DNA of 64,000 bases from Nemertoderma westbladi (lineage: Eukaryota; Animalia; Xenacoelomorpha). The stretch covers positions 1 to 64,000 of the forward strand of contig JAUCBJ010008828.1 of NCBI GenBank assembly GCA_032718475.1. The letters run 5' to 3'. Position 1 is the stretch's first letter, and every line of letters starts with the position of its first letter. Made by a program: the position numbers and the translations under genes. The notes under the pieces were generated by a model. The model was not told the DNA's origin and ran no database searches. It was given only the letters and a program-made list of their open reading frames with translations. Positions 16,564 through 45,756 of the stretch are shown piece by piece.

Positions 16564-16899
16564 TGCACTGCATCTGATGAATATCAGAACATGTTTTTGT
16601 GACGCTAGAGGGCGTATTAGGATGTTCGAATCATTCATTGTACACTTGTGGGGACGTCGGGACTCTAGAGGCTATAGCTAGCTACAGTAGATCACTACAA
16701 TTTGTACTGATAAACATATAGATGTATTTATACTTATATAATATATTATTTTAATGGGAAATAATAATAATGCACTAAATTTAGCTCACGCTAAACCACC
16801 GAACTCATTTTACTGAGCAAAAACGCACGCGATGGATCAAAACGACATACAGCTACTAGCTCAGGCCATCAAAATCCTACAAAGCCCGTCACTGATCCA

Positions 16900-17710
16900 T
16901 ATCACGCACCAGTAATTTCGTCTGATTCTGTCAAACTCCCTGTGTTTTGGACATCCGAACCAGAGAAGTTTGGTTTGCTCAGGTGGAGGCTCAGTTTGAA
17001 ACGAGAACACCCCCGAATACTACTACTAGTATCGGCATGCTGCATTGCAGCTGCATTTTTAAGAATGCTGTGCCGGCTTGTCGACAAAATTGCGCCGCCA
17101 CAACTCCCTATCACCCATGACATTTGCTAGATCATCCGCATCTTCAAGACCAGTGTCCTTTAAGATGCGTCTCAAGAAAGTCATGGGCTGTCCACCATGC
17201 TTATTCACTCTATGGGGTTGCCAAAGTACAAGATTATGCACTGGCTGGTCCTCACGGCGAAAGCAATGTCCTGCAAAGCGGAGGCGACTTTGTTCTAGTG
17301 TCAAGCTTGGGGGAACCAATGAGACACCTCCAATGTTATATAGTGTCTGGTTGGAGATGTGTGCATCCCCGAATACTGTCAACAAGACAAAGTTTAATTA
17401 CATCGTTGCAGTTCTGGACAATGCCACTGCTAAGGAAGTTAGATCGATTATCCTCAGCCCTCCAATTGATGATCGCTATGAAACTTTGAAGACAGCCCTT
17501 AAATCTCTAGCGGCCATAGACAATTAATTATTCTCATTATCTGGTCCTGGGGACTGTAAACCGTCGGGACTGCTTCGACACATGCATTCTCTCAATGGTA
17601 ACCTTCTCAATGGATATTTTCCGTGCTCTTTTCTTGACTCAAATGCCTATCGAAGTGCGCCGTATCCTGATTGGTTCCAAAACGTCGGAGCTTGACCAAC
17701 TGGTAATAGA
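16900..17710 (+). mobile_element. Ty3/Gypsy gag relic, interrupted by an RTE fragment
   Basis: VKLPVFWTSEPE..FAQVEAQFETR | NKTKFNYIVAVLDNATAKEVRSIILSPPIDDRYETLK...GDCKPSGLLRHM, typical of invertebrate Gypsy gag. Frameshifted. Confidence 0.75.
17022..17366 (-). mobile_element. Short 3'-end copy of the same RTE family, inverted
   Basis: Matches 15207-15550 in reverse and has a (TAG)n tail. 11-bp TSD CCCCGAATACT at 17011-17021 and 17367-17377. Confidence 0.92.
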
Positions 17711-17740
17711 GGTGGCAACAGTTCCTTTGCAATATATACT

Positions 17741-24134: not shown

Positions 24135-27075
24135 CTTTATTCTTATTTATTATTTATTTATTTACCGCAGGCAACATATGGAAAATATAATATATTATAA
24201 TCGCACAATCAGCCCATATCGTCTACCTACGCTACAGCACAATAATTAAGTATGTAATTGATTATGTATGCGTGTACTTAGTAATACTAATAATTCGCTA
24301 AATTAACAGATTTTCGGAATTGCACATTTCAAAAATTCTAGAACTATGCAACGCGGTGTAACAATATACAGCATTTACAATATAATTACTGGAACATTTT
24401 ATCCTACGAAATAAACTTTGAATTGATTTGAAACGTAAATGAATGAAGCACGGAATATTGTTGCAACCAAAGAAATATGACATACTAGAACCTACAGAGA
24501 TGAAAAATAGCTTTCTTGCTGCATTATTGTATGCTACCCTTAACCGATTATAGACAACAGATGAGTAGTTCCTACGTGACCACAGAGCATTACAATATAG
24601 TGGAGTTATAAATGCTAGAAATAAACGAACTTTCACTGCAACGGTACAGGTACTAAATTTTCTAAACAACGTATTTGTACGGGCGTACATACTACCTATT
24701 TGTTTCTTAATGTCAAGATCATCATCACGTGATTCGTGTATTATATGACCCAAATATGTAAATTTATCAGTTCTAGAAATAACACGCTGGTATAAATATA
24801 TTGGAGCTATTGTACTTAAGTTACAAGATTTCGGGCACAAAAACATTACCTTAGTCTTCTTTAAATTAAACATTATAGAATGTGAAATTGCATAATCCTG
24901 ACACACATTAACTAACTTTTGTAAACCTATAAGTGAATTTGACATTAAACCAATGTCGTCTGCATACATTGTATGATTAATCCTTTGACCATTAATTGAA
25001 CAACCTACGTTAGCCATTATAAGTTTACGGGATAAGTCGTCCATGTAAACATTAAATAAATAACCAGATAATATTCCGCCTTGCTTCACGCCATTAAACA
25101 CTGCAAACGTTCTGGAATATGTAGCACCCCAGCGCACTTGTAATGTTTGATGTCGGTACCAAAAGGCTAAAATACGCACCAAATAGAGTGGTACATTCCT
25201 ATTTATTAATTTCTGAAAAAGTTTATCGTGCTCTATTCTGTCAAATGCTTTAGATGCATCCAAGAAACAAATATACATAGGAGAATCATTATCTAAGTAA
25301 TAATCAATAACCTCTTTCAGAGTATATACACAAAGCTCGGTACCGCTATTTGCCTTATATGAGAATTGGTGATCGCTACAAATTAAGAAAGACTGCATTC
25401 TAGATAATAAAATACGTTCAAATATCTTACTTATTGCTGTTGAAATAGCAACGGGCCGATAGTTTGATTTCTCATCTATAGCACCATTTTTATCTTTAAT
25501 GATTGGTACAATAATACTATGAATAATGGAGCTTGGTAAATAACCATGTACCATACAAGAACTGAAAATAAAGCTAATAAAATATTTAGCCTACTACTAT
25601 TACTGTAAATGAAATGTTCCCCAGTCCCCCATGAAATGTCCTATCGCTTTACCTAATTTTAAATTAGCTATTGCACATCCTACTTCTGCTGCACTTATAT
25701 TCATATCAGTTGTGTACAGTACTTTATTTAGTTGTTCGTATATGCTACTGCCAACACAAAACTCAGTTACTCCATTAGTTTTGTTACAATTAAACAATAT
25801 TTCAAAATCGTTTGCAAAATTACTACAAATTTCTCGTTCACCGGTCGCACCACTAACAACATTGGGTAAGGGTATTTTGCACGAAATATCTTTCTTCACG
25901 GATTTCCAAAATGAATTAAAGTCCTTAGAAAGGTTCGATTGTGCTAATTTATCGACCCGTTTTTGATTTTCGGAACGTTTACATTGTCTAAAAATACGTT
26001 TAAAATTTGCTCTGGCGTTAAGGTAGTCATCATGGTGAAGACTACCCTGCCGAGGACAGCCGGCATCTTTCCACTGTATAAAAGTATCCCGAGATTCCTC
26101 ATAGAGCGCTTTAACATGATCATTCCAACCAGGAACGTTGTAACTATTGTTTGAATTCATGTTAATATTATTACTCGGTATGGACGTTGACGCACTTTCT
26201 ACTAAAGCACCTACTATACGGTCCCACAAACTACTAAGATTGTTCACATGTGATTCATCATTACAGTTTATGGAGGTACATGTGAAGGCCTCGGGTATTT
26301 ATATATTATTCAATGAATCATTAAGTCTACGGTAATTATCGAGTTGCACCGGCCGAGCTGCAGTCCAAATAAACTTAGTAGGATTTGTAATCATAGTATC
26401 GCTTTTATCCGTAGTATTTACCGTAGCGTTAACATTAATATCAATAGTAAATCTTAAAGGTATATGATCAATGGTAGCTAGATCATAAATAACATCGACA
26501 TCCTTAATTAAAGAGTCGGACGTGGTGGTGCTGACAATATGGTCTAACCAAGAGGTGGTACTAAATGCTGCACTCACAATTGTAAACGTATGTGGTGGTA
26601 ATCGTTTTACATCGGACAAAATAATTCCGCAATTAGCGCACCAATCAGATAACTCTCTATAAAATGATTTTTGTGGCGAGGCATTAAAATCACCGACTAT
26701 ACAGCATTTCACAGTTGGGGCATTATCAATTATTGATTGTATGCGTCCTAGGTACTCTAAGTACAAATCCAAATTGTCAGATGATTCGAAAGGTAAATAT
26801 AAATTCAATATTAAAATTTTCGATTTATCCGATAGGTTTACATAAAATCCCATTATTCGTTCATCCGCTATATTTAAATACTCAATAGAAGATGAAATTT
26901 CTTCCCTTACCATAACCGCCAGACCTCCATGTGGACGGCCGCGCAATAATCCATTGGATAAATCTACTGAGATTCGCCTCGACAGATAAACTTGTCATCT
27001 ATTTTCGAGAGGAAACTTAATTCCTGTTTCGGAAGTAGATGCTCTTGTAACAAAACAATATCCGAAATATCACAC
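24135..27075 (-). mobile_element. LINE, RTEX-like, disrupted ORF2 (APE endonuclease + RT)
   Basis: Three fragments (26299-26946, 25600-26247, 24298-25554) with GRPHGG, GDFNA, WLDH, DHIP, NYRPVAI, DASKAFD, GVKQGGILS, YADD. (AAT/AAAT)n tail at ~24135-24165. Confidence 0.88.
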
Positions 27076-28679: not shown

Positions 28680-29026
28680 GTATGGCATGAATAATGAAAT
28701 GCTAATTCTTCTGGCACATAATATGTTTAGAATAAGAGAAACCGGTTCTTGCCATTCTAAACTAAAGGAATCACTACTCATACCAATTTATAAGGGGAGG
28801 TCCCTCGACAAAACAGTACCAAAGAATTATAGTGGGGTAATCACCCTAATCAGGATATTAGGGGAAGCTGAGATCCTTAAAGGAACCCTCATATCTACTA
28901 TGGGGACAAACGAACTCCAGATGGGTTTCAAACCAAAAATCAGCACTGGAATAACAATAACATATTTGAGTGTAACTAAAATCATTCAGTACTTACTTTA
29001 TATAAACACCACTCAGCTGCACATAT
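28680..29026 (+). mobile_element. Highly degenerate LINE RT remnant, split by the BEL insertion and continuing at ~42977-44030
   Basis: LKESLLIPIYKGR...PKNY...ELQMGFKP on the left; an SAFDRV-like motif at ~43075 on the right. Confidence 0.5.
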
Positions 29027-29555
29027 TGTGACGGGATCCAGGAGGGATCTCGATTTATCCGGTATTTTAGTTTACGCGTCCCCGCCGTGTATAAAGAGTA
29101 AACGAAACAGTGAATGAGTTCTGATGTTCGGTGTATAATAACTGATGGGTATAAGATATAGATATAGATATGTGGAAGGCGGGATATGGTAACTAAAAGT
29201 CCCGTGCTCCCCTATCTAAACTAACTAACCTATGCTAGTACTACTGCATTGAGATAACTGAATTACTGATTAATAGGTTACTGATTATATTGCACGGTTG
29301 GCCTAATTACTACCTAATCGATGCCTTGCCCCCCTCTGATTGGTTGATACCCTTGTTGGCGCCCCGTGGAGTGTTCCCGTTCACTCCACCTGTACTCTCT
29401 GGGTTAGGGGTTTGGCCCCTGACCCTTTATTGTGTGCTTCCTTCCCACTCTTATTGGGATGGCACGAGTTGGTTAATTGCCCAATCTCGTGGCTCCCAAT
29501 ATTGCTTATCGGCTTATAACTTTATGGGGTGTTAGCGGGATTGAGTAAGCTAACA
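29027..29555 (-). repeat. 3' LTR of BEL/Pao element 1
   Basis: Direct repeat of 42442-42971, preceded on the sense strand by the purine tract GGGGGGGAG. Confidence 0.97.
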
Positions 29556-30266
29556 CTCCCCCCCATGCTATCTTCCCGGTAAGAAGATAGCATCAACCAA
29601 AAAGTGCGCTACAATCCCGCTGGATCCCGATCTAGTATCGGGTGTGGGGTGGAATTCTTTTCTCTCGGAGTCGGCTTTCCAGGCCGCCCCCTATGGGTAT
29701 GATAACGCTACCCTGTGTGCCTGGCGTCTCATGTCGGGCCGATCGCGCTCACCTCTCGCGCGACTTTTGTTTCCCCAACACTTTCGCCCTATCTCACCTT
29801 CACTCTCACCCTAACTCTCTCACACTCGGACCTCCTCGTCCCCCACTCAGCCTCTTATTCTCCCCCCCCCCCACACTAGAATTGCGTCCGCACTCTCTCT
29901 GCACTCCGCACTATTATTCCGTCCCTCAACCTCACTTCGACTGTCTCTTCCCTTCTGACGAATCTCCCCCCCCCTCTCGTGCCGTCGCACTCAAGAAGTG
30001 TGAAATTGTCTGGTGTCTCGTCCATAGTGCCATAGTCAGTTATCCCCCAGTCCCAGTAGCTAATTGAGAAAGGTTGTATGACTATAGTACTTACTCCGAA
30101 CGTATATATTTCTAGATTACTAATTACTACGTACGTACATACAAATTGCACTTATATGATTATTTTGCATTAATTGAATTTGTACTTAATAGTTCGTATA
30201 TCCCACGCGGCGCCCACCAGGCGTACCACGTCCAAGTCCCAGTCTCTCTCCCTCGACTCTGGGAAC

Positions 30267-32802
30267 CTATCTGTTCCTCCGGGGGTAGTTCCCCCTAGCG
30301 TCCTCTTCCCTGGGCCGCTTCTTGGTTATCACCGTTCCTCTGGCATCATCCGCTTTCTGCTTTCGGACCTTCGCCGCCACTTCCTTGCTGATCCCGGTCG
30401 TTGGCTCCTTGGGCGCTGGTGTTATTAGTGCCCGATATCGCTTCGCCGGTGGCCCCTCAGAATGGCCCGGTTGTCTCCCTCTAGTGGCGTCCCATAGGAT
30501 CATTTTCATTGCCTTTGGTACGTGCTCCGCCAAGAAATCCCTAAACTCCCTTCGGTTCTCTGGCGTCCACCTGTCCAGATACCTTTGCGTGTTCATCACT
30601 CCAGCGTACGACGCCGCCGTTGCTACCTCTTGGTAGGTAAACGGTAGCCTCCGCTTTATGATTTCCATGTGAGTCTCCTGATTGATAAGGAAGAAACCCC
30701 ACTTAAACTCCTGGGCCTTCATGCGCTGGCGCGTCATGGCCCCGACGTCGGCCCACTCCTCGAATCTTGTGAACTTCTCCTCGTCGTTCATCCAGTCGCA
30801 CTCGCGTCCGTAGTGTCCCCGAAAGTGGCACTTTGGACATCGGTTATGCAACCGTGGACACGCCCCCATCCTGTGGCTTGGTTCTCTGCAGTAGAGACAA
30901 AAGGTTCCCTGTTGGAACCGGTATAGACAGCTGCTTTCCCGATGGGTCCGTCTCCCACAGTAATCGCAGCCGAGTACCAATGTCTCCCGTCCCACCTCGT
31001 CTTTCGTCCCAAGCGATCTCCGCGGTCTGTGGAGTCGCTGGTAGGCGAATTTCTCTACGTTGGTCTCCCTGTCTACGTCGATCTCTCCGCCCCTCTCGGG
31101 CATCGTCTCCCCGAATACTATCCGTGGTGCCGTCCCCGGTTGCTCGCCCAACCTGATGGTGCTCCCCGCGAAATCCATCGCCGGCTCCTCGTGCACCCAG
31201 GTCCGCTTGCCGGATCTGTTCCAGAAGGCCCTTGCCCCACTGGCCGTCACCACCCTTCCGCCAACCCAGTCCGTGTCCGAGTGGCCTATCCTCTCGATGG
31301 GCGGTATCTCTCCAAACTCGTCGTCGTCGTCCTCCTCTTCTGGTAGTGTCTCCAATCCCGGTATCCCGATGGATCCACTATGTCCCTTCCCGCCTTGGCT
31401 CTCGCCCGTAGCTCTCCATCCCTCTAGCTCCCTTAACTTCCTTGGCGGTTGGTCGCCCTCGGCGCCCGCTGGTATGGGCATCGTTCGCAACCCCGACGTC
31501 GACTGTTTCGGCGATCCCACCGTCCATCCCAATTCTCGCCCTAGAGACTCCCCCGAACTCCCTGACGAAGTCCAATGAAGTTCGTCTAGGCCCGCCTGTT
31601 CCTCGAAGCCGTAACTCTGTGTCCTGGCCTCCTCTTCCCTCTCCTCTGCTTCTATCCTCTCCCGTCTAGCGACTTCTTCCAGTCGCTTTGCTTCTCGTCT
31701 ATCCGTCTCTAACTGCTCCCATCTCTGATACGGTGTATCTGTCTCCCCGTCTACCAGATGTCGGCTGTTGTAATACACCGACTCGCCCTTCAGCCCCGGG
31801 TGGTCTACCAGACCGTCAAAGGCCACTTTAAAGGCTCTCCTGTAGCTTAGGGGTGATCCCGATAACAGAAATGCCCCTGGTTCCCTCTCGATAATCACGG
31901 TCATGAATAAGTTAAGCAAACTTATCATCATCCAGTCCTCCTGCAGGATATATCGCTTCTGATATACCTTTATCGCTCCCCTGCGGAACTGATATACCTC
32001 CTGCTTTCCCGGTCTCGCTCCCCACTTTAGCGAGTTCGCTAGTTCTGCCCCGTATTCTTCCCTAAACTTCCCCCAGGAATACGAGCCCCAATAATTGGCC
32101 CATCGCCACCGCCCCGCATTGGCCTGTGTTTTCGACTACCCCCAATCCATCCGGTGCCGTCATAGCCATAAAGACTTTCTGCATATCCAGGAGGTTGGTG
32201 GCGTCCGGACCGATGATCCTCTCCGCGTCCTCGCGAATCGCCGATCCCACTTTCGTCGTCGACTTCTCTCTTACTAAGACTTGTACCGCTTTCGGTAATC
32301 GGTCTAATTTCGGCCCGTCCTTCTTCCCATACGTCCCTAGGTCGAATAAGAAGATGTCCCCATTTGGCGCGGCCAAATGTAGGAGTATGGTCCTGGCCGA
32401 CCCTGCCGTTCCTCGTCTCGAACCCGCTTCGTCTTCCACGGTTCCCTCGTCATCTAGGATCATATATCCTCCTCTGTTGACGGACTCTATGAATCTTTTC
32501 CAGTCCTTCCTCGGTGATTCCCTCGGGTATTTCGGAATCCCGAACTTCGCCTCGTCCCCTTTCACCACGTAGTGGAAGTGTTGGAAGATCGCGTTGTCTA
32601 GCGACGGGGTCCCGTAGGTCCCGACCAGCCGCTGTTCGTGCGCCTCCCGGAAGTGATCCTGCAGCGCTCGTGCCGCGTGACCCCTTTCCAACCTCTCGTA
32701 GTATCCTCTCGTCTTCTCTTCCGGATGTCTCTAGGTGAAATCCACCAGTATCTCCTTTCCTCCTGACTCCGCCTTTCTCTTTCTGATCAACTTACTCGCC
32801 AT
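30267..32802 (-). pseudogene. Extra ORF of BEL element 1: DEDDy (RNase D/WRN-like) 3'-5' exonuclease + coiled coil + three CCHC zinc knuckles; one in-frame TAG (32733-32731) and one frameshift (~32135-32064)
   Basis: ATG at 32802 (MASKLIRKRK...). ExoI-like YMILDDEG, LLHLAAPNGDIFLFDL, ExoII-like LPKAVQVLVREKSTTKVGSAIREDAERI, NLLDMQ, ExoIII-like YQKRYILQED. Knuckles CDYCGRRTHRESSC, CLYCREPSHRMGAC, CPKCHFRGHYGREC. Confidence 0.75.
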
Positions 32803-33289
32803 TCCGAACGTTCACTCGCTCACCTGCAAGGTGGTGCCTTACCAAGGCGCAATACAGATGAGTGATGTATCTAGGATGTTCTGTACAGTTCGATAATGGC
32901 CTACTTCTACTTAACTGCGCCTTTTAACCTAAATTATTCCTAATTAATTTTGAAGCTAGTAAATACACCCTAATTTCGATTTCTGTCCGTTACTTTTATT
33001 ATGTTCTAGAATAGCTTCCCTTGTGTTGCCACTATTTTACAATTTTCAGCCCTATTCTATTTATTTATTTATTTACTTTGATTCTACTGTCCTACTACTT
33101 GCTACTGCCTATGGATTACTCTATTCTCTAATCCACATTCTGGCCTACTCTGTGGGTCTATGCAGTACAGCAGTATACGTCGTGTGGCCACACGATTTAC
33201 CCAGCTGTACTCATATGCCCCCCTCTCGCTACTAACTGCTAACTAATATCTATATCTTATATACCCCTTTTACTTCTTACTTTCTCTCT

Positions 33290-33895
33290 TCTAACTAACG
33301 GTACTACGTACCCTCTAACTCTCTAACTAACTAACGGTACTACGTACCTTCTAACTCTCCTCTAACTATCGGTACTACGTACCCTCTAACTCTCTAACTA
33401 ATGGTACTACGTACCCTCTAACTCTCTAACTAACTATCGGTACTGCGTACCCTCTAACTCTCTAACTAACTATCGGTACTACGTACCCTCTAACTCTCTA
33501 ACTAACTATCGGTACTACGTACCCCCTAACTCTTCTAACTAACTATCGGTACTACGTACCCTCTAACTCTTTAACTAACTAACTAACGGTACTTACGTAC
33601 CCTCTAACTAACTCTCTAACTGGCGGTACTACGTACCTCCTAACTAACTAACTAACTAACGGTACTTACGTACCCTCTAACTAACTCTCTAACTGGCGGT
33701 ACTACGTACCTCCTAACTAACTAACTAACTAACGGTACTTACGTACCCTCTAACTAACTCTCTAACTAACTAGCGGTACCACGTACCCTCTAACTAACTT
33801 TCTAACTGGCGGTACTACGTACCTCCTAACTAACTAATTAACTAGGTACTACGTACCTTCTTACTAACTCTCTGCCTACTAACTGCGTACCTACC
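33290..33895. repeat. Internal tandem array of BEL element 1 (GGTACTACGTACC core + (CTAA/CTCT)n spacer, about 15 units)
   Basis: Seen directly between the pol stop and the extra ORF. The core is a short hairpin (GGTAC-TAC-GTACC). Confidence 0.9.
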
Positions 33896-34004
33896 ATGTA
33901 CTATTTTTTTATTTATTTTATTTTGTTTGTGGGAAGGGCGTCTCGCCCTCAATCCCACCCCCCTCAGTCCAAAACTTGGACGACTAAAATATCCTCTAAC
34001 TTTG

Positions 34005-37000
34005 CTAAGGTGCCCCTTCTAATAGACAACATTTACCTACAGCTCTCCTGTAGGTTTTTCTGTCCTTCGCACCTATCTTTCCACCTATCCGCACTTCTAC
34101 CGATCGGACTCTTCCGTCCTCGTCGGAGTAGGTGCCTACAACTCTCGCCAACTGCCACTGGTTGTTGATGATAGTATCATCCGTAACGATTACGAGATCT
34201 CCCTCTCTTAACTCCCTGTTCGGCTTCCTCCACTTGCTTCGCTTATGGAGTGTGGGTAGGTATTCCTCGACCCACCTCCTCCAATACTCTGCGCTTATTG
34301 CTTTAGCGACTTTCCAACTTTGGCGGGAGTGTATGTCATCTGGGTCTACACCCCGCATATCGATGGTCGCTGGCCTTTCCATCAGGAAATGGCTAGGCGT
34401 CAGCACGTCTAATGACTCAGGGTCATCATTCTCCGGATATAGCGGTCTGCTATTAATGATCCCCTCGCACTTCGCAAGTACTGTCCGTAAGACGTCCTCA
34501 GTGACCATGTGGGTGTTCATCAGCTTCGTCATTAGACGCTTTGAACTGCCCACTAGTCTCTCGACGCATCCTAGTGTATGTGGTGCATACGGCGTCCTTC
34601 TCTCCCACTTTACTTGTCGTCGTCTCATGGCTGCCCTGACTTCTTCTCCCTCCAGGATGTCCAAGGCCTCTGCCATCTCACTCTCTGCGCCCACAAAGTT
34701 GGTGCCGTTGTCGCTGTATATCACTGCGATCGTCCCACCTTTGCGGTCCCTAAATCTTTCTAAGGCGTTAATGAACGCTGATGCGGTTGCATCTTGGGCG
34801 AGTTCTATCCCTACCGCCCGCGTATTGTTGCATACGAAGATAATGCCGTAGCGTTTCTCCGTGTGTCGCATCACTTTGATCTTTATCGGCCCGAACATGT
34901 CCACACCGCAATGCGTAAATGGCGGGTCGTGCTGTCTTACCCTACTCGCCGGTAGTGGTGCCATCTCCTGTACGGCTCGCTCCTTCTTCGCTCGTCGGCA
35001 GGTCTGGCACTGCCCCACTACCGCTTTAACCTTCTTCCTTAATTGTTTGACCCAATAGGTCCTCCTTATCTCTGTGAGGGTTCGGTTGGTGCCCCCGTGC
35101 AGTATCGATTTGTGGGAGTCCCATATAATCTGGTGGACTATTGGCGATCCTGTAGGAATGATGATGGGTTTCGGTGGTACCACTATGCTGTTGTTGTATC
35201 CCACCCTAGAATTCATTACTAGAATCCCGTCGTCATTGAGTTGTGGCGACAGCGTAATCAGCTCGCTGTCCCGTCGGATGTGCTGTTGGTTACCGACGCG
35301 TTCCACCTCGTCGCCGTAGTTCTTCCGTTGTTCATAGCGGATCACTGCCTTGGCCGCTCCTTCCAGATCTATGGTTGTCCTGATTTTCTTGTCCTTGCCG
35401 ACTCCCGCAAGGAAATTCCCGAAGGCTCTCCAATACGCCACTAGTTTCTTGGTCTTATACCAACTAGAACTGTAGCTGAGGAGTTTATCCGTTGGGTTAT
35501 CGCACAGTTCCCTTCCTGGTTGCACGTCCCTAATCTCCCTCACCATCTGGGAGTATATCTCTTCTCCCTCTGAATCTCCCTCTTCTCCTTCTGATACTAC
35601 TTCCGAGCCCGGGTCCACCTTCCTCATCGGCGGCCAGGCCTCCCTATCGCTCAGAAATTGTGGCCCATGTTGCCACAATACTTCCTTCTTCAGGAAAGTG
35701 TGGCGTTCCACGCCCCTCGACAGCAAGTCCGCTGGGTTCTCGTCTGTTGGGCAGTAGTGCCACCTTTCCAGTTCTGTGCTCGCCCTTATTTCGTCCACTC
35801 TATTCGCGACGAATATCGGGTATCTCGTCTTTTCGTTGTGTAGCCAACCAAGCACTACCATGGAGTCCGTCCAGTAGTGTGTCTCCACTATGTTGGGAAT
35901 AGTATCCACTAGGTAGGCTGTGGCTCTTACTCCTAGTCTCGCAGCTGTCAATTCTAACTTGGGAACAGATGCTGAATCTGGGGGCGTTGACTTTGCTTTG
36001 CTAAAGGCTAGTCTGGGCCTGTGAGCCCCCTCTCGTTGTACTAAGTAGAGTGCCGCTCCGTACGCTTCCAACGACGCGTCGGAGAACATGTGTAGGTCCA
36101 GATTCGTCATGTTCCCATCCGGGAAATACACCCTTGGCATGTTGTATGTTCCCATCTTCTCCAAGTTTCCTGTCCACTTGCTCCACTGTCTCTTGATTTC
36201 CTCTGGTACCTCTACGTCCCACTCATCTTTCAATTTGTATACTCTCTTGAGTATCTCTTTCCCCGTGACTAATAATGGGGATGCTAGGCCTAGGGGATCG
36301 TATATCCTTGCTATATACGATACATAGCCCCTCTTCGTGTGGATGTCTGCGCCCTCCTGGCTCAGCTGATACTTCAGTTCGTCTGTCTTTCTATCCCACA
36401 CGATTCCCAATGCCTTCTGCTGAGATTCTGTTCTCTTAATCGCCATGTCCTGCCCTTTGGCTGTTGTGGGGTTATCCATGGTCGATTCTGGTTTCCTGTC
36501 CTCTATGGCTTTGATAAATTCTTCCGAACTGGATTGGAATTTGGTCAGGTTAAAGCCGGATCCTTTTAGGATGTCGCGAACCTCGCGCCCTGTATCCAGT
36601 ATCTCCTTAACCGTATTCCCAGACTCCATTCCGTCGTCTACGTAGAAGCCACGTCGAATCATATCGACGGCTCTACCGCTGTATCTATCTTCCTTCCCCT
36701 TTACTGTGTCTCTCACTGCCATAGTCGTCGTAAATGAAGACGACTTGGCCCCCATGTTCTGTACTATCATCTTATATGCTGGTATTATCGGCGGTTCTTC
36801 TTCGCCGTTATACCATAAGAAGCGTTGACTGTCGCTATCTTCTTCCGTTACACGGACTTGGTTGAACATGCCTTCTATGTCACACGTGAAGGCGTGTTTC
36901 CCATTTCGAAATCTAAGTAACACCTCTATGCCCGAATTGTAAATGTTTGGGCCTTCTAACAGGTAGTCGTTTAAGCACTTTCCGTCGGTCTTTGCCGATG

Positions 37001-40000
37001 CGTCGACTACCATCCTTAGTTTACCTTTCTTTGGATCTAAAGCCACGTGCAGTGGCAGGTAATATGTTCTATCCGTGTTCGGCTCGTCGACCGGTAACTC
37101 CACGGCCCATCCTTTCTCGACGTACTTCTTAATCGTCCTGTGGATGTACTCATTCTTCTCGGGGCTCCGTTTTAGTGTTTGTTTCAGCTTGCGGAGTCTC
37201 GTGAACTGTCTGAGCAGTCTTTTAAGCTGCTCCTCTGCTCCCTCATCACCCATTTCCTGCATTGTTCCCGCGAACATGCATCCTGATGTCTCCGACATCC
37301 TAAATGGTATCTTACTCTTGATTGGACCACTCAGCGTCCACCCGAATGGTGTTAATATGGCCACCGGGTCACTCTGCTTGTCTTCGCCGAAGACCGTTTG
37401 CATTCTTTCGTGGGCTGTTGGGCAGTCCATACCTACTATGATGGATACCTTCCTAACGTCCACGTCTGGGATTGAGAAGTCAATGTTGTCCAGGAATTTG
37501 TACTGCTCAACCTCGATGTTGGTTGGTCGCCTGGCATTGATATTAATTGACTCTATCACTTGAATGGGGTCGATTGTTGCCCCATAGTCGCATCCTGGTG
37601 CCACTGCTGCAATTGCGCACCATCCTGTTCTCATCTCCAGGATCTCATCTTTGCTAGAGATGGTTGTTACCGCCATCCTGCTTGGCCTCGTTCTCAATCC
37701 TATCTCCTCGGCCACCCATTCCTCGACTAATGTGAAGGCAGCTCCACTATCAACCAGCATTAGTGTTGTTACTGATCGATTGCCTTCCCCGATCACTCGT
37801 ACTGGTACTACTCCAAGTAGCACCGTTCCTCTCTTCTTCGCCCCTACTGTGCTCGTCGCCATCGTTTGGCCTCTCCTTTGACCAAATTTCATTGGCTTCT
37901 CTTTGCACTCCCTTGCTCTATGTCCACTCATTACACATCGCGAGCAGATTTTATTGCTGAACGCATAATCTATCTGATCTTGCCTAGGTAGCGCCTGCCA
38001 GTACCTGCAGTTCATAGTTTGATGAAGCGCATTTGCGTGTAGCTGACATTTGCTCTTTGGGTCGTAGCCCTCTTTATACAGTGCATTGCGTATCGCAGTT
38101 GCGTTCGTACCAAAGTCCCTACTATTCTTATTGTTTGGGTTTTGCCTATTGGACGTACTGGGGTTATGTTTATTCGTGTTATTATTATTTCCCTGTCCAT
38201 TCCATGATGTTGTCTTATCCTCGGCTAGCTGTGGACTTGCAGTCCCCTGCGTCGCTGCATACGGCAATGATTGCCTAAGTCTCGGTAATGCGTTCGATGT
38301 GTTGTGCTCTGGTTTCGGTCTATGGTAGTCTGTCTTCGGTCCCTTTCCCAGGCTGTCTTCGCTATAGACTGGGTCAGTTATTAGTTCAGCCTCGTAGTTT
38401 AAGAAGTTTGACATTTCTTCTAAACCCGGTTCCGCACCCTTCTTATCTCGAGTAGAGAAGGCGATTTTTCTCCACTTGTTGCGCAGCCAGTTTGGTAGTG
38501 CCTGCGCTATCGTGGTGATGTTGTTGGACGCATTGAGCTCGTACGGCGCGTCTAGCGTCTTCAGCACGATTAGCGCCTTTTCGACTTTGTTAGCGAACGT
38601 CTTAATGCTAACGGGATTATCCTGCAGGCCACCCGATGTTATGCCCCTCAGCGTCTGCCTGATGATCTTGGCCGGGTGCCCGTATTCCCTATCCAGTGCC
38701 CGCCATGCTGTCGTGAAGCCGCCCTCTATTCCTTGATATTGCCTCACGATGTCGTATGCTGGGCCTCCCGTGTACACTTGTAGATACTTTAGGCACTCCG
38801 CCTGCGTCAAGTTTTTTGTTAGTATTTCGTTACTATACATGCGCCGAAACTGTAGATATTCTTCCGGCCTACTCCCATCGAATTTGAATGGTTCCACTGG
38901 TGGTAGCTCGATCCTCGTTTTCAACGCATCGATCAACGTGGCCATCCCCATTGCCTGCGCTTCCAATGGATTCGACGGGTGCTGTATAGTTTCCCCTGTC
39001 TGGTGCGGTTCATCCGTCCTATTTCTCGATCTTCTCTGACTTGGGTATGTCATCGGGGGTAGCGGCCCCCTCCATATCTCCGTGTCACACGACTTATTCT
39101 CATCCAAGGGTCTCGTTGTTCTTGCTCCTATCAGGGTAGATTGTTGATATTGTGATGGGGGAATGTCACCCTGCCCCCCCCCCACCGGTATGTTTGGTAC
39201 TGGGGTTGATGTTAATATGTTGGGGCCCATGCACCTATCCGCAATAATTCCCCCCTCCCCTGGGTATATGTTATGTCCCTGCATGCTGTAGTCATACTGC
39301 TGTGCTGGTACCGGTATAGGCCTATCAGCTTCTGGCCTACCCGCCGGTATGTATTCCGCGACTTCCGGGTTTAATCCCGTTGTCCACGCTATCCTATCGC
39401 CTACATTGCCCCTCTCAGTATGGCCTATGGTATGTGCAGTAAGGCCTACAGTATGTCCTACAGTCTGCATGTGTTGTTCGGGATCGAAGTTTATTCTTCT
39501 CGAATAATCCTCCCCGCGGCTACCGTATTCTCGATCGGTAGGTATATCCCGTCGGAAAGTTTCTCTTCGACCCCCCTCTCTACTGTTCTCATCTTCGTAC
39601 CGGTACATCGCGTACCCCTCTCTCGGCGCGTAGTGCGCCTCGCCGGGTCGCATCCCTCCGGGGCGACGGCAATCTCCCGGAGTCCGACCCCACTGACTCT
39701 CCGTTCTCATCTCGACTATCGACGGCTCGCTATCCGTCCTCGCTCTTCTATCGTTCGCGGCGATACTTCTACTACTGTCTTCCTTTCTTCTCCTATCAGT
39801 GGAATATTCCCGCTCGTGAGATCTCTCGTCGACCTCCCGGTTAAACCCCACTGTTCTTCTTCCTTCCTCTGATCGGGCTCGACGCTTCATCCGCCCTCTC
39901 GCGACGTCAACCCGGCTCTCTCTGCTCGGTTGCACGCCGCTGGGGATATCCGCAATCCCCCTATTACTTTCCGTCGCCGGTTGTTGCGGTTTACCTATTT

Positions 40001-40793
40001 CGGCCCTCGCATTATCCACTGACGGCTGTGGGACACTCTCTGCACCCCCCCTTTCGCCGCTAACTTGCTGTTGTGGGGTTCTCGTAGCCCCCCCCCAATC
40101 GCCACATCTAACTTCGCTACTCCTCACCTCGCTACTATATCCCTCTCCAGTCGACACATCAACCCTACCGCGGTCGGGTCTATTCACCCCCGCTTCTCCT
40201 CCTGCTATTGCGTGGCCTTCCAGGCCCTCTACTCCCTGTCTACCAACTACGTGGCCTACCAGGCCCTCTGCTCCCTGCCTACCAACTACGTGGCCTACCA
40301 GGCCCTCTGCTCCCTGCCTACCAACTACGTGGCCTACCAGGCCCTCATCTGCCTGGCCATATACGCCCGACGCGTTTACATTAATAGCACCCGTATTGGA
40401 AACAGAATTAATTTGTCCGTTTGAAATAAAATCACTTGGATTATCTTGCGCGACTACACTATCTGAATTATTTTGTAAATTCGGGCTCGCTGAATTATTT
40501 AAGTTATTTAGATTATTTTGTGTTATTGCATTACTTAAATTATTTTCTAAGTTCGAATTTCGGTTATTACTTTGATTAATTGGATTATTTTGCGTAGCTA
40601 CATTAACATTAGAATTATTTTCTACACTAATATTAGGAATGTTCTTATTTAAATTTAAATTACTACCACTAGGTAAAGTATTGCCTGCAATAAAGGTTTG
40701 ATTAGAATTGTCCCATACGGTACTATTAATATTAACCACGTCTACTGTACCATTATCATTATTACCCCCCCCCCCCCGCCCGTACGGTCGCAC
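34005..40793 (-). CDS. BEL/Pao Gag-Pol polyprotein (gag, aspartic protease, RT, RNase H, integrase)
   Basis: PFKFDGS...LKYLQVYTGGPA (BEL gag), CSRCVMSGHRAREC, LVDSGA, YYLPLH/VVDAS/DIEGMFNQV/FYVDD, FSDASLEAYG/PKLEL/WTDS/NPADLLSRG, H..ILH...CQTC, GVDMFGP, SDNGTNF, ERLV, W.LARV. Confidence 0.95.
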   Translation of the reverse strand: MRPYGRGGGGNNDNGTVDVVNINSTVWDNSNQTFIAGNTLPSGSNLNLNKNIPNISVENNSNVNVATQNNPINQSNNRNSNLENNLSNAITQNNLNNLNNSASPNLQNNSDSVVAQDNPSDFISNGQINSVSNTGAINVNASGVYGQADEGLVGHVVGRQGAEGLVGHVVGRQGAEGLVGHVVGRQGVEGLEGHAIAGGEAGVNRPDRGRVDVSTGEGYSSEVRSSEVRCGDWGGATRTPQQQVSGERGGAESVPQPSVDNARAEIGKPQQPATESNRGIADIPSGVQPSRESRVDVARGRMKRRARSEEGRRTVGFNREVDERSHEREYSTDRRRKEDSSRSIAANDRRARTDSEPSIVEMRTESQWGRTPGDCRRPGGMRPGEAHYAPREGYAMYRYEDENSREGGRRETFRRDIPTDREYGSRGEDYSRRINFDPEQHMQTVGHTVGLTAHTIGHTERGNVGDRIAWTTGLNPEVAEYIPAGRPEADRPIPVPAQQYDYSMQGHNIYPGEGGIIADRCMGPNILTSTPVPNIPVGGGQGDIPPSQYQQSTLIGARTTRPLDENKSCDTEIWRGPLPPMTYPSQRRSRNRTDEPHQTGETIQHPSNPLEAQAMGMATLIDALKTRIELPPVEPFKFDGSRPEEYLQFRRMYSNEILTKNLTQAECLKYLQVYTGGPAYDIVRQYQGIEGGFTTAWRALDREYGHPAKIIRQTLRGITSGGLQDNPVSIKTFANKVEKALIVLKTLDAPYELNASNNITTIAQALPNWLRNKWRKIAFSTRDKKGAEPGLEEMSNFLNYEAELITDPVYSEDSLGKGPKTDYHRPKPEHNTSNALPRLRQSLPYAATQGTASPQLAEDKTTSWNGQGNNNNTNKHNPSTSNRQNPNNKNSRDFGTNATAIRNALYKEGYDPKSKCQLHANALHQTMNCRYWQALPRQDQIDYAFSNKICSRCVMSGHRARECKEKPMKFGQRRGQTMATSTVGAKKRGTVLLGVVPVRVIGEGNRSVTTLMLVDSGAAFTLVEEWVAEEIGLRTRPSRMAVTTISSKDEILEMRTGWCAIAAVAPGCDYGATIDPIQVIESININARRPTNIEVEQYKFLDNIDFSIPDVDVRKVSIIVGMDCPTAHERMQTVFGEDKQSDPVAILTPFGWTLSGPIKSKIPFRMSETSGCMFAGTMQEMGDEGAEEQLKRLLRQFTRLRKLKQTLKRSPEKNEYIHRTIKKYVEKGWAVELPVDEPNTDRTYYLPLHVALDPKKGKLRMVVDASAKTDGKCLNDYLLEGPNIYNSGIEVLLRFRNGKHAFTCDIEGMFNQVRVTEEDSDSQRFLWYNGEEEPPIIPAYKMIVQNMGAKSSSFTTTMAVRDTVKGKEDRYSGRAVDMIRRGFYVDDGMESGNTVKEILDTGREVRDILKGSGFNLTKFQSSSEEFIKAIEDRKPESTMDNPTTAKGQDMAIKRTESQQKALGIVWDRKTDELKYQLSQEGADIHTKRGYVSYIARIYDPLGLASPLLVTGKEILKRVYKLKDEWDVEVPEEIKRQWSKWTGNLEKMGTYNMPRVYFPDGNMTNLDLHMFSDASLEAYGAALYLVQREGAHRPRLAFSKAKSTPPDSASVPKLELTAARLGVRATAYLVDTIPNIVETHYWTDSMVVLGWLHNEKTRYPIFVANRVDEIRASTELERWHYCPTDENPADLLSRGVERHTFLKKEVLWQHGPQFLSDREAWPPMRKVDPGSEVVSEGEEGDSEGEEIYSQMVREIRDVQPGRELCDNPTDKLLSYSSSWYKTKKLVAYWRAFGNFLAGVGKDKKIRTTIDLEGAAKAVIRYEQRKNYGDEVERVGNQQHIRRDSELITLSPQLNDDGILVMNSRVGYNNSIVVPPKPIIIPTGSPIVHQIIWDSHKSILHGGTNRTLTEIRRTYWVKQLRKKVKAVVGQCQTCRRAKKERAVQEMAPLPASRVRQHDPPFTHCGVDMFGPIKIKVMRHTEKRYGIIFVCNNTRAVGIELAQDATASAFINALERFRDRKGGTIAVIYSDNGTNFVGAESEMAEALDILEGEEVRAAMRRRQVKWERRTPYAPHTLGCVERLVGSSKRLMTKLMNTHMVTEDVLRTVLAKCEGIINSRPLYPENDDPESLDVLTPSHFLMERPATIDMRGVDPDDIHSRQSWKVAKAISAEYWRRWVEEYLPTLHKRSKWRKPNRELREGDLVIVTDDTIINNQWQLARVVGTYSDEDGRVRSVEVRIGGKIGAKDRKTYRRAVGKCCLLEGAP

Positions 40794-42375
40794 CAGTTTT
40801 GAGTCTGTCGTGCGGTCCCTGTCAGTGGGGTATCAATAAATGTATCTACGGCCCCCGGCTCCCCAAAAATACTCGAGCCGGCCCCGCTTTCAGACGGCGA
40901 CGCTCGCACCAGTTGCAGCTCGTGCGCCCGTCTAATCTTATCTTCCGCAAGCACACTCTGGCGTCTCTTTAATTCCTTGTGCTCTCGTTCAGCCTCTGCC
41001 ATTCTCCTCTCACACTCCTGGGTGTCCCGGGCGGCCGACTCCGCTACACTCCTAATGCTCTCCCTTCGTCTCACCTCGCGCTCCTTGCGTTCCTTTTCCC
41101 TTCTCGCCTCATGTTCCTTGCGTTCCTTTTCCCTTCTCGCCTCATGTTCCTTGCGTTCCTTTTCCCTTCTCGCCTCATGTTCCTTGCGTTCCTTTTCCCT
41201 CCTCGCCTCATGTTCCTTGTGTTCCGCCTCACGCTCTTTGCGTTCCCTATCCTCCCTCGCCTCACGCTCCCTACACTCCTTTTCCTCTATTTCCTCACAC
41301 TCCCTAAGGCTTCTCAAAGCCCTTTCGGCCCTCTCTCCGGTTTCTCTAATCAATGCCGCTTCCCTCGCTAACCGCACTCTCCCCTCCTCTAACCGTTCCT
41401 CCATTTCCCTCTGACCTTGTTCTACCATGTTGAGACGGTATGCGGCACCTATCTCTCTCACCACTCTTTCTTTCGCGGAGGATGTAGCAGACTTATCGGT
41501 TACGACGGACCCCCTCCGCCTTCCCGACCTACTAACTTTCCCCCGCCTCCCGGAACTTTCTCCGACCGACGAGCTGAATCCTCGGGGTTAACCTCGGATT
41601 CGCCCCCCTCGGGTCCCCTCCAACCCACTAATTTTACTCCCCGGGCATCGACCAAGTATGGCCCTATGTACACTGGCGCTACGCTAGGTTCCATACTCCC
41701 ACACTCCCATAGTTCAAACAGTTCGCCGGCAACCCCTTTTGCTCTCTCCTCGGCTAGTTCTCTCTGCCCAAAACGTATTAGGTAATTAAAGTGTCTATCC
41801 GACTCACCTAGTCGCTTTCTCAGTCTCACCTCGTCTACCTTCGCCCCTTCCTTCTTGGCGTCCTTCATTAGCTTCCGGGTCGCGTTGTAGGCCCGTCGAA
41901 GTCGCTCTGAAACCCCGACGTCCTCGTCGCCGACCTCTCCTCCGTCCCTCCGGGTTCGACGTCGTACCGGCGGCTCCACCGTCGCCGTTCCGGTGGGCCG
42001 TCCGTCGCCCTCGGCCTGTAGCTGGCCGGCGACATCGGTACCGATGTCTCCTCCGTCTCTCTGCGTCCGGGGCCGCACCGTCGGCCCCACCGTCGCCGTT
42101 TCGGCGGGCCGCTCGTCGCCCTCGGCCTGTGGCTGGCCGGCGACACCGGTGCGTCGACCCCCGTCCCGTGTCGACTCGTCTCCGTCTCCCTCCGTCCCGC
42201 TCTCTCTTTCTCTCGGTTCGACCTCGGGTTCCAGGCCCCCCTCGTCCTGAACTGCCGGATGACCCGTTACCGATGGGTCCGGCGTTGTGGGCCTGTATCG
42301 CCTGGTTGCGGCCTCGCGGATCGTTAGGTCTTCGTCCGGGGTCCGCGTCGGTGTCGTGTCACCTGACTGACTCAT
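40742..42375 (-). CDS. N-terminal gag extension of BEL element 1 in two fragments (42375-41500, 41464-40742), each offset -1 from the next
   Basis: ATG at 42375, 66 nt after the LTR. Charged/coiled-coil sequence with KERKEHEARRE repeats. The second break lies over a 13-nt G run (40765-40777). Confidence 0.65.
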
Positions 42376-42441
42376 CCTCTTCTGCAGATTTCGGTGGCTA
42401 GTGGTTGAGTTTTATCTGGGGCGGCAGCTGGTTTTAGTTAC

Positions 42442-42971
42442 TGTGACGGGATCCAGGAGGGATCCCGATTTATCCGGTATTTTAGTTTACGCGTCCCCGC
42501 CGTGTATAAAGAGTAAACGAAACAGTGAATGAGTTCTGATGTTCGGTGTATAATAACTGATGGGTATAAGATATAGATATAGATATGTGGAAGGCGGGAT
42601 ACGGTAACTAAAAGTCCCGTGCTCCCCTATCTAAACTAACTAACCTATGCTAGCACTACTGCACTTGAGATAACTGAATTACTGATTAATAGGTTACTGA
42701 TTATATTGCACGGTTGGCCTAATTACTACCTAATCGATGCCTTGCCCCCCTCTGATTGGTTGATACCCTTGTTGGCGCCCCGTGGAGTGTTCCCGTTCAC
42801 TCCACCTGTACTCTCTGGGTTAGGGGTTTGGCCCCTGACCCTTTATTGTGTGCTTCCTTCCCACTCTTATTGGGATGGCACGAGTTGGTTAATTGCCCAA
42901 TCTCGTGGCTCCCAATATTGCTTATCGGCTTATAACTTTATGGGGTGTTAGCGGGATTGAATAAGCTAACA
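42442..42971 (-). repeat. 5' LTR of BEL/Pao element 1
   Basis: Sense TGTTAGC...CCGTCACA, followed by GTAACTAAAA rather than a TGG-type PBS. Confidence 0.97.
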
Positions 42972-45756
42972 CATATTATCTTATGTCAGGGCCCCAACCG
43001 CAGGTTATCGTGTTCGGAGAACCCGATTCTGTGCTCGGCCACGGAACTAGTCTTGCGCACGCCTTTATCTATCATCAGCCTTCGACAGGGTTAACTTCTC
43101 AAGATTAAACAGTATCCTATGGAATCAAACCTAAAGGTTGTAGGGTACCCCAACAATTAAAAAAAAGATTCTTATGACATACTTCCTATCAGGCTCGTTA
43201 TACCTCTGTGTAAGAAAAATACAGCAGGAAAACCGTATTCCTATAGAACTTGGATTATGACAGGGAAGTTGGCTATCACTGTTCTTCAGTAACGTCTATA
43301 TCGCATAACTATTCGATTACAAAGTTAACAGTAATTATTGAGTTCATGTGGGAAGCCTTTTATTCGGTATAATTAGTTATGGGGATGATATCATATTGTA
43401 ATCGCTAATCTCAAGACAGACGACAGCTCAGTCAGTCAGCAAGAAAGTCAATAGCTACTATGTGTTATACTTACTTAATAACTTAATCTTATAAAACAAA
43501 AGGACTCACTATCTTCTCATAAATAAAAAAGGGCGCAGTGCAACTGATATAATGTCTATGGGTTCCAGGGCATAAAATCACCCATAGATTTATTTTGGAA
43601 ATGTTTGTCCAGGTCGCGAGCGAGGCAGGTGTGGTAGAAGTAGATAGGTACATTTATACAACTGTCTTCAAACGAAATTGCTTTGAGATATTCCAGTCAA
43701 CTGACGAAGACAAATCCAACGATTATATATACAAGAATATTTGAACAATCACAATTATTGACAACCCACAAATTATTGAACAACCAGGAGCCATAAACAA
43801 GAACCAGGTTAAGAAAGATAGAAAATCTTAAAGTGGCCGACTACATCAGCCATGAGAAGTACGTGCAAGGTAAAATTGAAGCATCACAAACTGCTCACAT
43901 AAAGCAACAGTCAATACTCTTGCCTTACAAAATTAGCTATCTGGAAGGGAATATTGTGCTAAGGGGCGCCTAATAGCTGATAGTCCTGAAGAACATGTTT
44001 GGAATTGGACATATAGAACCAAGAAGTCCACCAGAATTAAAGTGATTTATACATAAACTAAACTACGAGATGATAGTGTCGTATAAATTTAATTAAAGTT
44101 CTTCCTTTATATTACTCTATCTACCTTATCATATTCGCTGTACTGCATAATTTTATTAATTTAGAGTAGAGGGATATGAGAGAATGTTGGACGTTATAAT
44201 TCCATCATAGTTGTTGTAGCTATTGATTCGGTCTTCAAGAAATCCCGTGTATATTGGTATCTGACTACAGTGTTCTATAGAAGCTGTAGATAAACTCAGC
44301 ATGATACGAATAACATATAGATAGCACGCTATGAACGACCAAATGTGTTGGATTAAATATATAATTATGTAAAAATAACATTTCGTACCATTCATTTATT
44401 TTTGAAACTGAGTGAGAGTGCATAATGTAGTTATCCCTAGGTCTAGCGAAGATGTTTTTGAGAAACAAAAATATGAAGATATTTTCGTAACAAAAACTGT
44501 AAATATTGTTTCAATATTCTGAATCCGGTGTAAAATTTGATTAGACGGACTACTGAAGCCACAATTGTCGCTTCATTTACTCATTGAGAACTTTAAACCT
44601 CAGAATTACACCTCAGAAGTATTTATTTTGAGTAAAATACCGGTTAAATTTCTTTAGAAATTGTCGTTTCATTATTGATTATAAATTTAGGATATTATAT
44701 ATAAATTATATATATTTTTTAAGAGAATCAGCACCCCATAGCGGGGTAAATATATTCTTATTGTTACTGCACAAAACTGAATTGATAAGGATATTGGAAA
44801 CAGCAGTAACACAGTAATAATACCATATATGTACGGTGCATTATAAAGTTAATAAAATAATTTAGAGTAAAAGGCCATGCAATAAAGTTATTAAAGATTA
44901 TTATTTATAAATATATTAAATAACAACAAAAGAAGATTATTGTTTGTTTTATTGCATGCTCATGCAGCTAGAATTATATTTAATTTTAAATTAAATGCGG
45001 GGGGGGGGGGGGGTGGCGGGGGGTGTACACAATTTTTGGACAACTCTTCGATTTATCACTCCCAGCGTTTCAAATATTTTTGGTTTTGGCTATAATTTGG
45101 AATAAAGTTACCTAAGATGCTATTCTACATTGATAGCTCAGAAAAATTTTATTTTTGGCTATTTAATATTATTTAAAGCTACAGTTAACAATGAAAAAAC
45201 GTGGTTGATAAGATGAGTTTTTTTATAAATAGTATTAAATGTTATTAACTAAAAATTTCAAAAGGTTGTCTATACTTTTATGCAGGGTTGCTATGTAGAC
45301 AGACATTTGTAGAAGTAGTAGGGTTATGAAGTTGACAATTTCCCAAAAAAATATTTGGCGATAATAGATCGTTCATTATGCATAGTAATAGTAATTTCAA
45401 TAGGTCTCCCTAAATGTAAATTGTTATAATTTGAAAAAGTAAAAGAGCTATTAAATACCCCCCCCCCCCCCCCCCCCCCCCACCCCCCTTAATTAGTTAT
45501 AACTTAGTATGGAATGGTGATATAGAATTACAATGAATTGCAGAAGTTACCAGAATTACAGAAGCCACCTGGACTAACAAATATATATAATAACATCATT
45601 GTAAAAAATAATATTGTTTAATTTAATTCTTCAACATTTTAACTGGTAAATTTGTATCAAATAATAACATCGATCTACACAACCTCGCTACTAACTAACT
45701 ACTAACTACTAACATCGATTTAATCAACTTCCATGGATAATGAGTGATTCATTAAA

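Follow-up and report, generated by a model that had tools for sequence, protein, structure and literature searches.

Long terminal repeat (LTR) retroelements are thought to require gag and pol alone, and third genes are mostly read as env. The question raised by the DNA analysed here, a stretch of 64,000 nucleotides from Nemertoderma westbladi (contig JAUCBJ010008828.1, positions 1 to 64,000; the window, in what follows), is what is encoded by a long open reading frame (ORF) found in this third position, between pol and the 3' LTR of a BEL/Pao retrotransposon. This frame, ORF3, is a real accessory gene under selection. With slightly better than even confidence, it is read here as a gene of a young BEL/Pao element present in many copies, its product joining three CCHC zinc knuckles to a likely, and then very divergent, DEDDy exonuclease that would trim 3' ends in the replication complex.

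When ORF3 was read from 32802 to 30267 with an X at an in-frame TAG and at one four-letter step, no further stop was encountered. The preliminary description of this locus had claimed an env-position gene of about 845 codons, after one TAG and one frameshift, in a BEL/Pao element, and both the translation and the anatomy of the element confirmed it. In the present copy the natural pieces comprise 23 codons (32802-32734), 222 codons (32730-32065) and 622 codons (32135-30270). The parts of the gene are as follows.

30267-32802, minus strand: ORF3, 845 positions with one TAG and one frameshift, translated with X at both breaks; stop TAG at 30269-30267
32731-32733, minus strand: in-frame TAG at codon 24, seen in the translation
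32077-32080, minus strand: place of the frameshift, where sibling contigs have a longer, different stretch, the length difference not being a multiple of three
31890-32490, minus strand: likely exonuclease domain of the DEDDy type (RNase D/Rrp6-like), its codons lying in two different frames, with weak statistics
30981-31718, minus strand: acidic linker of about 250 residues, rich in Gly, Pro and Ser, where the majority of the listed differences between copies change the residue
30798-30968, minus strand: three CX2CX4HX4C zinc knuckles, a strict pattern match with weak matches in the PDB
30270-30803, minus strand: C-terminal part predicted to be helical, followed by a basic tail, KKRPREE..RRNR; no relative found

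The three knuckles, located at 30968-30927, 30899-30858 and 30839-30798, had been reported previously, and the strict pattern bore them out: it occurs four times in the six frames of the whole window, three times in ORF3 and the fourth time in the gag of the same element. Their sole knuckle match in Pfam was zf-CCHC_5 (E 0.32), and the matches in the PDB, to a three-knuckle CCHC protein (7c42, E 0.2) and to the retroviral nucleocapsids 1cl4 and 2ec7, were non-significant (E 0.2 to 4.4). The knuckles of ORF3 share the CX2CX4HX4C spacing of those in retroviral and retrotransposon nucleocapsids (PF00098), as does the one in this element's gag, but they belong to an accessory protein instead of gag. 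A protein search by word index with the knuckles plus the C-terminal part produced no relative.

A membrane-type stretch was also looked for along ORF3 and none was detected, the highest Kyte-Doolittle mean over 19 residues being 1.39, in agreement with the earlier claim that a transmembrane segment is absent. Therefore, ORF3 is not an env. It stands in the same slot, and in the same kind of element, as the env-like third genes that some BEL/Pao elements carry according to excerpts of a BEL/Pao survey and of the profile of the International Committee on Taxonomy of Viruses (ICTV) (PMC3118150, PMC8742986), although, unlike them, it has neither a signal peptide nor a membrane segment. Its GC content by codon position (0.59/0.42/0.67 and 0.56/0.49/0.66) has a shape like that of pol (0.52/0.42/0.57).

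The retrotransposon that carries ORF3 is complete, with a length of 13,945 bases on the minus strand (29027-42971 of the window), and has these features.

29022-29026 and 42972-42976: the two copies of the target-site duplication CATAT, read in the flanks at both LTR ends
29027-29555, minus strand: 3' LTR, TG..CA, identical to the 5' LTR at 528 of 533 aligned bases, plus one indel
29556-29577, minus strand: polypurine tract adjoining the 3' LTR, read directly from the sequence
33284-33865: 16 tandem copies of a 36-nucleotide unit (83% matches), in the spacer that follows pol and precedes ORF3
34005-40832, minus strand: gag-pol frame of 2275 codons with a DUF1759 gag, one CCHC knuckle, Pao peptidase A17, integrase and DUF5641
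42442-42971, minus strand: 5' LTR, partner of 29027-29555

The LTRs are 529 bases long, their first letters being TG and their last CA. Matches of the gag-pol frame in Pfam were to Peptidase_A17 (1.8e-39), DUF5641 (4.2e-24), Integrase_H2C2 (3.8e-12) and DUF1759 (1.4e-10), with an additional rve match that scored under its cut-off. The peptidase, the integrase, the gag and C-terminal domains, the LTR pair, the duplication and the polypurine tract are all present, and the element is a BEL/Pao retrotransposon. A primer-binding site was not identified in the element, nor was any transfer RNA gene found within the window. On the 3' side of pol the order is 140 bases, the tandem array, an AT-rich spacer and then the ATG of ORF3 at 32802. 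When the integrase part of pol was compared with metagenome contigs, a single contig of 1459 bp was returned (34% identity), without context, whereas viral contigs returned none.

BEL/Pao elements are found in metazoans and measure 4.2-10 kb in excerpts of the same survey and profile (PMC3118150, PMC8742986), so that the present element, at 13.9 kb, exceeds this range; the additional length lies in ORF3, the spacer and a 5' coding region of low complexity. In this 5' region the minus strand has two extra open frames ahead of the gag domain (42411-41500 and 41587-40742), each of these two being -1 with respect to the next frame, with an overlap of about 90 nucleotides. GGGAAAG occurs in phase at 41542 within the first overlap, and 13 consecutive G within the second; tandem repeats that keep the frame, with units of 33, 39 and 111 nucleotides, are also present in the region 40742-42411. 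The -1 overlaps may reflect programmed frameshifting or slippage, or else mistakes of the assembly at the G run.

Whether ORF3 belongs to the family or only to this copy was answered with contigs of public sequencing runs placed on 30000-33300 at a likeness of at least 85%. Three runs of one organism contain at least half of the sampled words of the ORF3 stretch. From two runs that belong to two studies of the same organism, here X1 and X2, 6867 and 3778 contigs were placed, respectively, covering all 30 bins and all likeness classes; two further runs, X5 and X6 (another organism label, 90-97% alike), gave 56 and 7 contigs. With thousands of contigs over ORF3 and both its flanks, the gene is therefore part of a very abundant and diversified repeat family. 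The concern raised at the outset that the region might be a captured fragment absent from sibling elements was thus dispelled: sibling copies carry the gene, and it is not a one-off capture. No RNA run is among those listed as carrying the ORF3 stretch; X6 is RNA by conjecture only.

The differences among these copies were used to ask how ORF3 evolves, taking the best-supported 40 of 333, of which 37 fall inside the gene. Among these listed differences 22 are synonymous and 15 nonsynonymous, with 13, 2 and 22 at the first, second and third codon positions, respectively, compared to a synonymous expectation of 0.31 derived from the substitution spectrum of the runs themselves. In the N-terminal domain (32028-32802) 11 of the 12 listed differences are synonymous (p 1.9e-5), whereas in the rest of the protein, comprising the linker, the knuckles and the C-terminus, this holds for 11 of 25 (p 0.08). 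The N-terminal domain is under purifying selection among copies.

The same contigs bear on the two breaks of the present copy. At the place of the frameshift, five contigs of X2 (loose ends at 32076) and one of X6 (32081) continue with a longer, different stretch, and by frame count the length difference brings the two frames of ORF3 into phase. Thus, the frameshift is a defect of the present copy or of its subfamily and not of the gene. At the TAG of codon 24 none of the best 40 of 333 differences falls, and both of those listed upstream of it are synonymous, giving weak support for a coding role of codons 1-23. In one contig of X5, position 30653 is followed by 10 other letters and then by 32498, so that it derives from a sibling without most of ORF3; therefore, deletion derivatives that lack most of the gene also exist.

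What the N-terminal domain is was approached first from its motifs. DxE, LLxLA..FLFDL, KVG..I..D and Y...[ED] had been listed in the preliminary description as signs of a DEDDy nuclease, and a basic RKRK (residues 7-10 of ORF3) as resembling a nuclear localisation signal; all of them are present. Their positions, and that of a further block, are given below.

32446-32454, minus strand: ExoI, D-D-E (D93 and E95 of the 222-residue piece), placed by hhalign on the DTE of the family
32227-32253, minus strand: ExoII block KVGSAIRED, from the alignment with a hidden Markov model (HMM); 16.6 bits, top of six blocks
32010-32024, minus strand: WGARP, family block SDWGARPL, with a block score of 8.2
31935-31952, minus strand: ExoIII candidate Y-I-L-Q-E-D, with Q at -3, E at +4 and D at +5, read from the sequence

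In ExoI, the context is ILDDEG, and hhalign sets D93-D94-E95 opposite the D-T-E of the family. It is followed by ILLHLA..IFLFDL, where LLH stands opposite the llQ of the family in hhalign, and then by ExoII, where KVGSAIRED lies opposite KvfhaarqD in both HMMER and hhalign and the Asp is present. In the HMM alignment, LLHLA..KVGSAIREDAERI was matched to llqla..KvfhaarqDleil, which corresponds to the region from strand 2 to ExoII. WGARP reproduces the commonest residues of five successive columns of the family (W in 28, G in 10, A in 17, R in 20 and P in 20 of 31 members). Read in order, the motifs give D-E-D-(E)-Y. The succession h-h-D-x-E, an LLQLA-like strand, K-h-G..D, hDxQ, W..RP and Q..Y...(D/E) is that of the cellular RNase D, Rrp6 (EXOSC10), WRN exonuclease and MUT-7 proteins (PF01612).

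A feature look-up in the ESM-Atlas pointed to the same family. Its three nearest clusters (scores 0.89, 0.88 and 0.88) are eukaryotic, with PF01612 in 40%, 29% and 16% of their members, and its ten best named matches all belong to one family or clan; 161 features were shared, with a recognition of 2736. By the calibration of the tool this result is only a lead, yet the family had been named beforehand from the motifs.

For direct profile tests, a custom family profile was made from 31 proteobacterial PF01612 domains obtained by genome searches; a search for RNase D homologues gave only enterobacterial sequences at least 88% identical, of no use as a profile, and an RNase D scan of genome contigs likewise returned only Enterobacteriaceae. 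The register of the alignment of ORF3 agrees with that of these 31 bacterial members. With the custom HMM (HMMER, no filters) the 222-residue frame reached 5.3 bits (E 5.4e-4 for one sequence), a score attained by none of 2000 shuffles, and in hhalign it was first among the 39 frames of 120-400 residues in the window (22.1 vs 16.6), with P 0.007-0.013 against the family. In BLASTP against E. coli RNase D the top segment (E 0.37) covered ExoII, again in this register. An ordered score was also computed over six objectively chosen family blocks, and it came mainly from ExoII (16.6 bits) and LKWGARPGK (8.2 bits). The motif statistics, the language-model result and the strong constraint among copies together make it quite probable that the domain is DnaQ-like, likely with a DnaQ-like fold and the acidic residues D-E-D-(E) plus Y.

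Other results weigh against a DEDDy exonuclease. Part of it concerns the targeted tests themselves. The ExoIII candidate, Q-K-R-Y-I-L-Q-E-D, comes after an insertion and this part alone has no HMM score; furthermore, Q, Y and D(+4) are found in 31 of 31 family members, while ORF3 has E at Y+4. The 161 features shared in the ESM-Atlas are fewer than the 170 reached by nine in ten true family matches. With the custom HMM the ORF3 piece ranked second, behind a 58-residue frame, among the 409 stop-to-stop frames of at least 50 residues in the window; 2 of 248 shuffles equalled it in hhalign, and 11 of 1000 reached its six-block score, whose best ExoI and ExoIII placements differ from the motifs read by eye. 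The HMM, hhalign and block tests share residues and are not independent, each standing at about p 0.01, which is weak. Another part comes from general searches: no row for PF01612 or any other nuclease appeared in Pfam up to E 10, NCBIfam and PHROGs gave nothing or chance rows at E > 0.2, the N-terminal piece matched no PDB sequence, and phmmer with the 222-residue frame found no true relative among 1.84 billion representative proteins. The single-sequence AlphaFold2 models of the N-terminal piece and of the C-terminal part, with predicted local distance difference test values (pLDDT) of 33.9 and 40.3, were unusable, and the gene is broken in the present copy, from which the protein cannot be made.

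The 58-residue frame mentioned above lies at 44399-44572 on the minus strand and scored 6.0 bits with the custom HMM, compared to 5.3 for ORF3; given its length and its place outside any element gene, the score is taken as chance. Two candidate relatives of the 222-residue frame were likewise rejected. The only match of phmmer, a repeat protein of 2805 residues hit 14 times on a stretch of 19 residues, was spurious, and the best match in a Klebsiella genome (E 0.19), in an AcrB-family pump, was due to chance. A word-index search with the ORF3 protein read through with X gave no match, and no loci related to the 222-residue frame were found in metagenome or viral contigs.

These results leave room, though not much, for a domain that is not DnaQ-like at all, in which case ORF3 would be an orphan accessory protein with the triple knuckle as its one recognisable module, perhaps a packaging factor or an additional nucleic-acid chaperone. 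In favour of such a protein, neither a curated profile nor a solved structure matches and phmmer gave no relative, while the targeted tests get no further than about p 0.01, with second place of 409 for the HMM; both structural models are unusable, and the knuckles are the sole unambiguous feature of the protein. We consider it unlikely, since the first three matches of an independent language-model look-up were to the very family that had been named before it, since the HMM, hhalign and BLASTP choose the same, correct register, and since five motifs, WGARP included, appear in family order in a domain that is strongly constrained among copies. The claim of DEDDy identity was upheld in part: PF01612 came first in the ESM-Atlas (0.89) and the motif register agrees, whereas the profile comparison with DNA_pol_A_exo1 gave no Pfam row to E 10 and only weak alignments with the custom HMM (5.3 bits) and hhalign (P 0.007-0.013).

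If the domain is a member of PF01612, it is a very divergent one. It scores below every curated threshold, no HRDC domain was detected in it, and it differs from the family in the E at Y+4, in the insertion before ExoIII, in its fusion to zinc knuckles and in being the gene of a mobile element. For the DEDDy exonuclease that we favour, the following steps are proposed. Intact copies would make the protein from a subgenomic RNA, and single-stranded RNA or complementary DNA (cDNA) would be bound by the knuckles, whose type is also that of the element's nucleocapsid. The putative nuclease would then shorten 3' ends in the replication complex, be they those of the primer, the genomic RNA or the cDNA, and the basic N- and C-terminal stretches may permit nuclear entry. 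In this scheme we infer the catalytic activity, the substrate and the expression from a subgenomic, probably spliced, RNA. A CAG|G that may serve as a splice site is found some 20 nucleotides upstream of the ATG of ORF3.

Two further possibilities accept the fold and change its use, and both appear rather improbable. In the first one, suggested in the preliminary description, the nuclease would act against the host, trimming or destroying the small silencing RNAs that target the element (PIWI-interacting or small interfering RNAs) or their precursors. The cellular DEDDy proteins MUT-7, Nibbler and EXD1 act in small-RNA pathways, and a silencing suppressor could explain the very high abundance of the family in its host. 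On the other hand, this abundance has many other explanations, ORF3 has no relative among known suppressors, and knuckles of the nucleocapsid type rather suggest the element's own RNA or cDNA as the ligand. EXD1 and mut-7 are named in the excerpts of the work on bdelloid rotifer elements (PMC5408684).

The second possibility, of about the same low probability, is that the fold has been kept without catalysis, ORF3 being an RNA-binding adaptor like EXD1, Maelstrom or Egalitarian that takes the element RNA to host transport, granules or the exosome. The E at the fourth acidic position, which is D in all 31 family members, and the insertion in the ExoIII region would fit such an adaptor, but the D and E of ExoI, the D of ExoII and the Tyr are all present, and E can likewise bind metal. 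Inactive RNA-binding derivatives of DEDD proteins do exist according to two sources (PMC5408684; bioRxiv 10.1101/2025.08.03.668247), although in one of them the ORF3s of bdelloids with a DEED motif were still judged possibly catalytically active by the authors (PMC5408684).

It is also conceivable, at a still lower probability, that the exonuclease, supplied in trans, proofreads reverse transcription or repairs the 3' ends it produces, entering the particle via the knuckles and stripping misincorporated or untemplated nucleotides from the 3' ends of growing cDNA. If so, ORF3 would be the retroelement counterpart of ExoN of nidoviruses, an enzyme that permits oversized genomes. For size context, the element measures 13.9 kb compared to the 4.2-10 kb of BEL/Pao elements (excerpts of PMC3118150 and PMC8742986), and other DEDDy carriers include the Terminons, of 40 kb (excerpts of PMC6431247).

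Finally, it is scarcely credible that ORF3 is foreign to the element, either as another repeat nested in it or as a piece of host DNA picked up by the present copy alone, for despite the long spacer to pol (1.2 kb), which contains the tandem array, and contigs too short to span pol, ORF3 and LTR together, ORF3 lies on the same strand within one LTR pair with one target duplication, no second repeat pair is found within the element, the purine tract is not preceded by poly(A), its GC by codon position is like that of pol, and thousands of sibling contigs run over it and both its flanks.

RNase D-like genes in other retroelements provide the closest comparison for a DEDDy exonuclease in this position. 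The preliminary description had mentioned such ORFs from nematode BEL elements, and these were not found; in print, as far as the available excerpts go, they are those of bdelloid Juno/Vesta and Athena elements (PMC5408684). More precisely, DEDDy (RNase D-like) ORF3s are described in bdelloid rotifers for Juno1/2 and Vesta2/5, which are Gypsy-like, and for Athena/Terminon Penelope-like elements, where they were detected by HHpred alone and have an altered acidic motif, with Cys/His motifs in the Vesta ORFs; the role proposed by their authors is 3'-end processing of the element RNA or of single-stranded DNA (excerpts of PMC5408684 and PMC6431247).

The gene described here resembles those of Juno and Vesta in being an extra ORF on the same strand, between pol and the 3' LTR, common to the copies of a family and not an env, and it resembles the bdelloid ORF3s in being DEDDy-like with one acidic residue changed, reached by remote-homology methods alone. 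In contrast to the bdelloid carriers, the present one is a BEL/Pao element, neither Gypsy-like nor Penelope-like, and unlike their ORF3s the protein has three full CX2CX4HX4C knuckles, an acidic linker of 250 residues and a helical C-terminal part. The comparison with the Juno, Vesta and Athena ORFs is one by description; no relative of ORF3 was found at E 0.001 among the 1.84 billion representatives, a library that may or may not include those ORFs.

A DEDDy nuclease is also carried by another kind of mobile element, the Dada DNA transposons of a fungus and a brown alga, where the domain is part of the transposase and was assigned by the authors to the processing of 3' ends made during transposition (excerpts of PMC3706591). 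Dada differs from the present element in being a DNA transposon with the domain inside its transposase, whereas ORF3 is a separate gene of a retroelement. Searches of full-text literature revealed no BEL/Pao element with a DEDDy third gene, and only env-like third genes are mentioned in the excerpts of the BEL/Pao survey and the ICTV profile (PMC3118150, PMC8742986). Thus, DEDDy third genes themselves were already known, and what is new here is BEL/Pao as a carrier lineage and the combination of domains, without detectable sequence relatives.

Retroelements make up the remainder of the window as well, in the form of several LINE-like frames (long interspersed nuclear element) and a second BEL/Pao gag. 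The latter, at 61393-63999 on the plus strand, matches DUF1759 (4.7e-14) and runs off the window end; being 23% identical to the gag of the element studied, it belongs to a different family. LINE-like elements were observed at 14102-19858 (plus strand), 24301-26994 (minus strand) and 50150-53284 (minus strand), and include one frame of 1045 codons with Exo_endo_phos and RVT_1, one broken set of endonuclease and reverse transcriptase, and further reverse transcriptase frames. In the first 4000 nucleotides (1-4000) the GC skew is strongly negative (-0.37 to -0.69), with a GC content of 0.45-0.58. The stretch 8076-9151 has no stop in any of the three plus-strand frames over some 350 codons, an arrangement suggestive of simple or satellite-like repeats. 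A scan of the window against Rfam gave no match.

If ORF3 is a DEDDy exonuclease joined to knuckles of the nucleocapsid type, the same enzymatic cargo would have been acquired in a third, deeply separate lineage of retroelements and maintained by selection in a very successful family. This would argue that retroelements repeatedly need the trimming of 3' ends, or repeatedly use it as a weapon, and an abundant family would be available in which its role can be tested.

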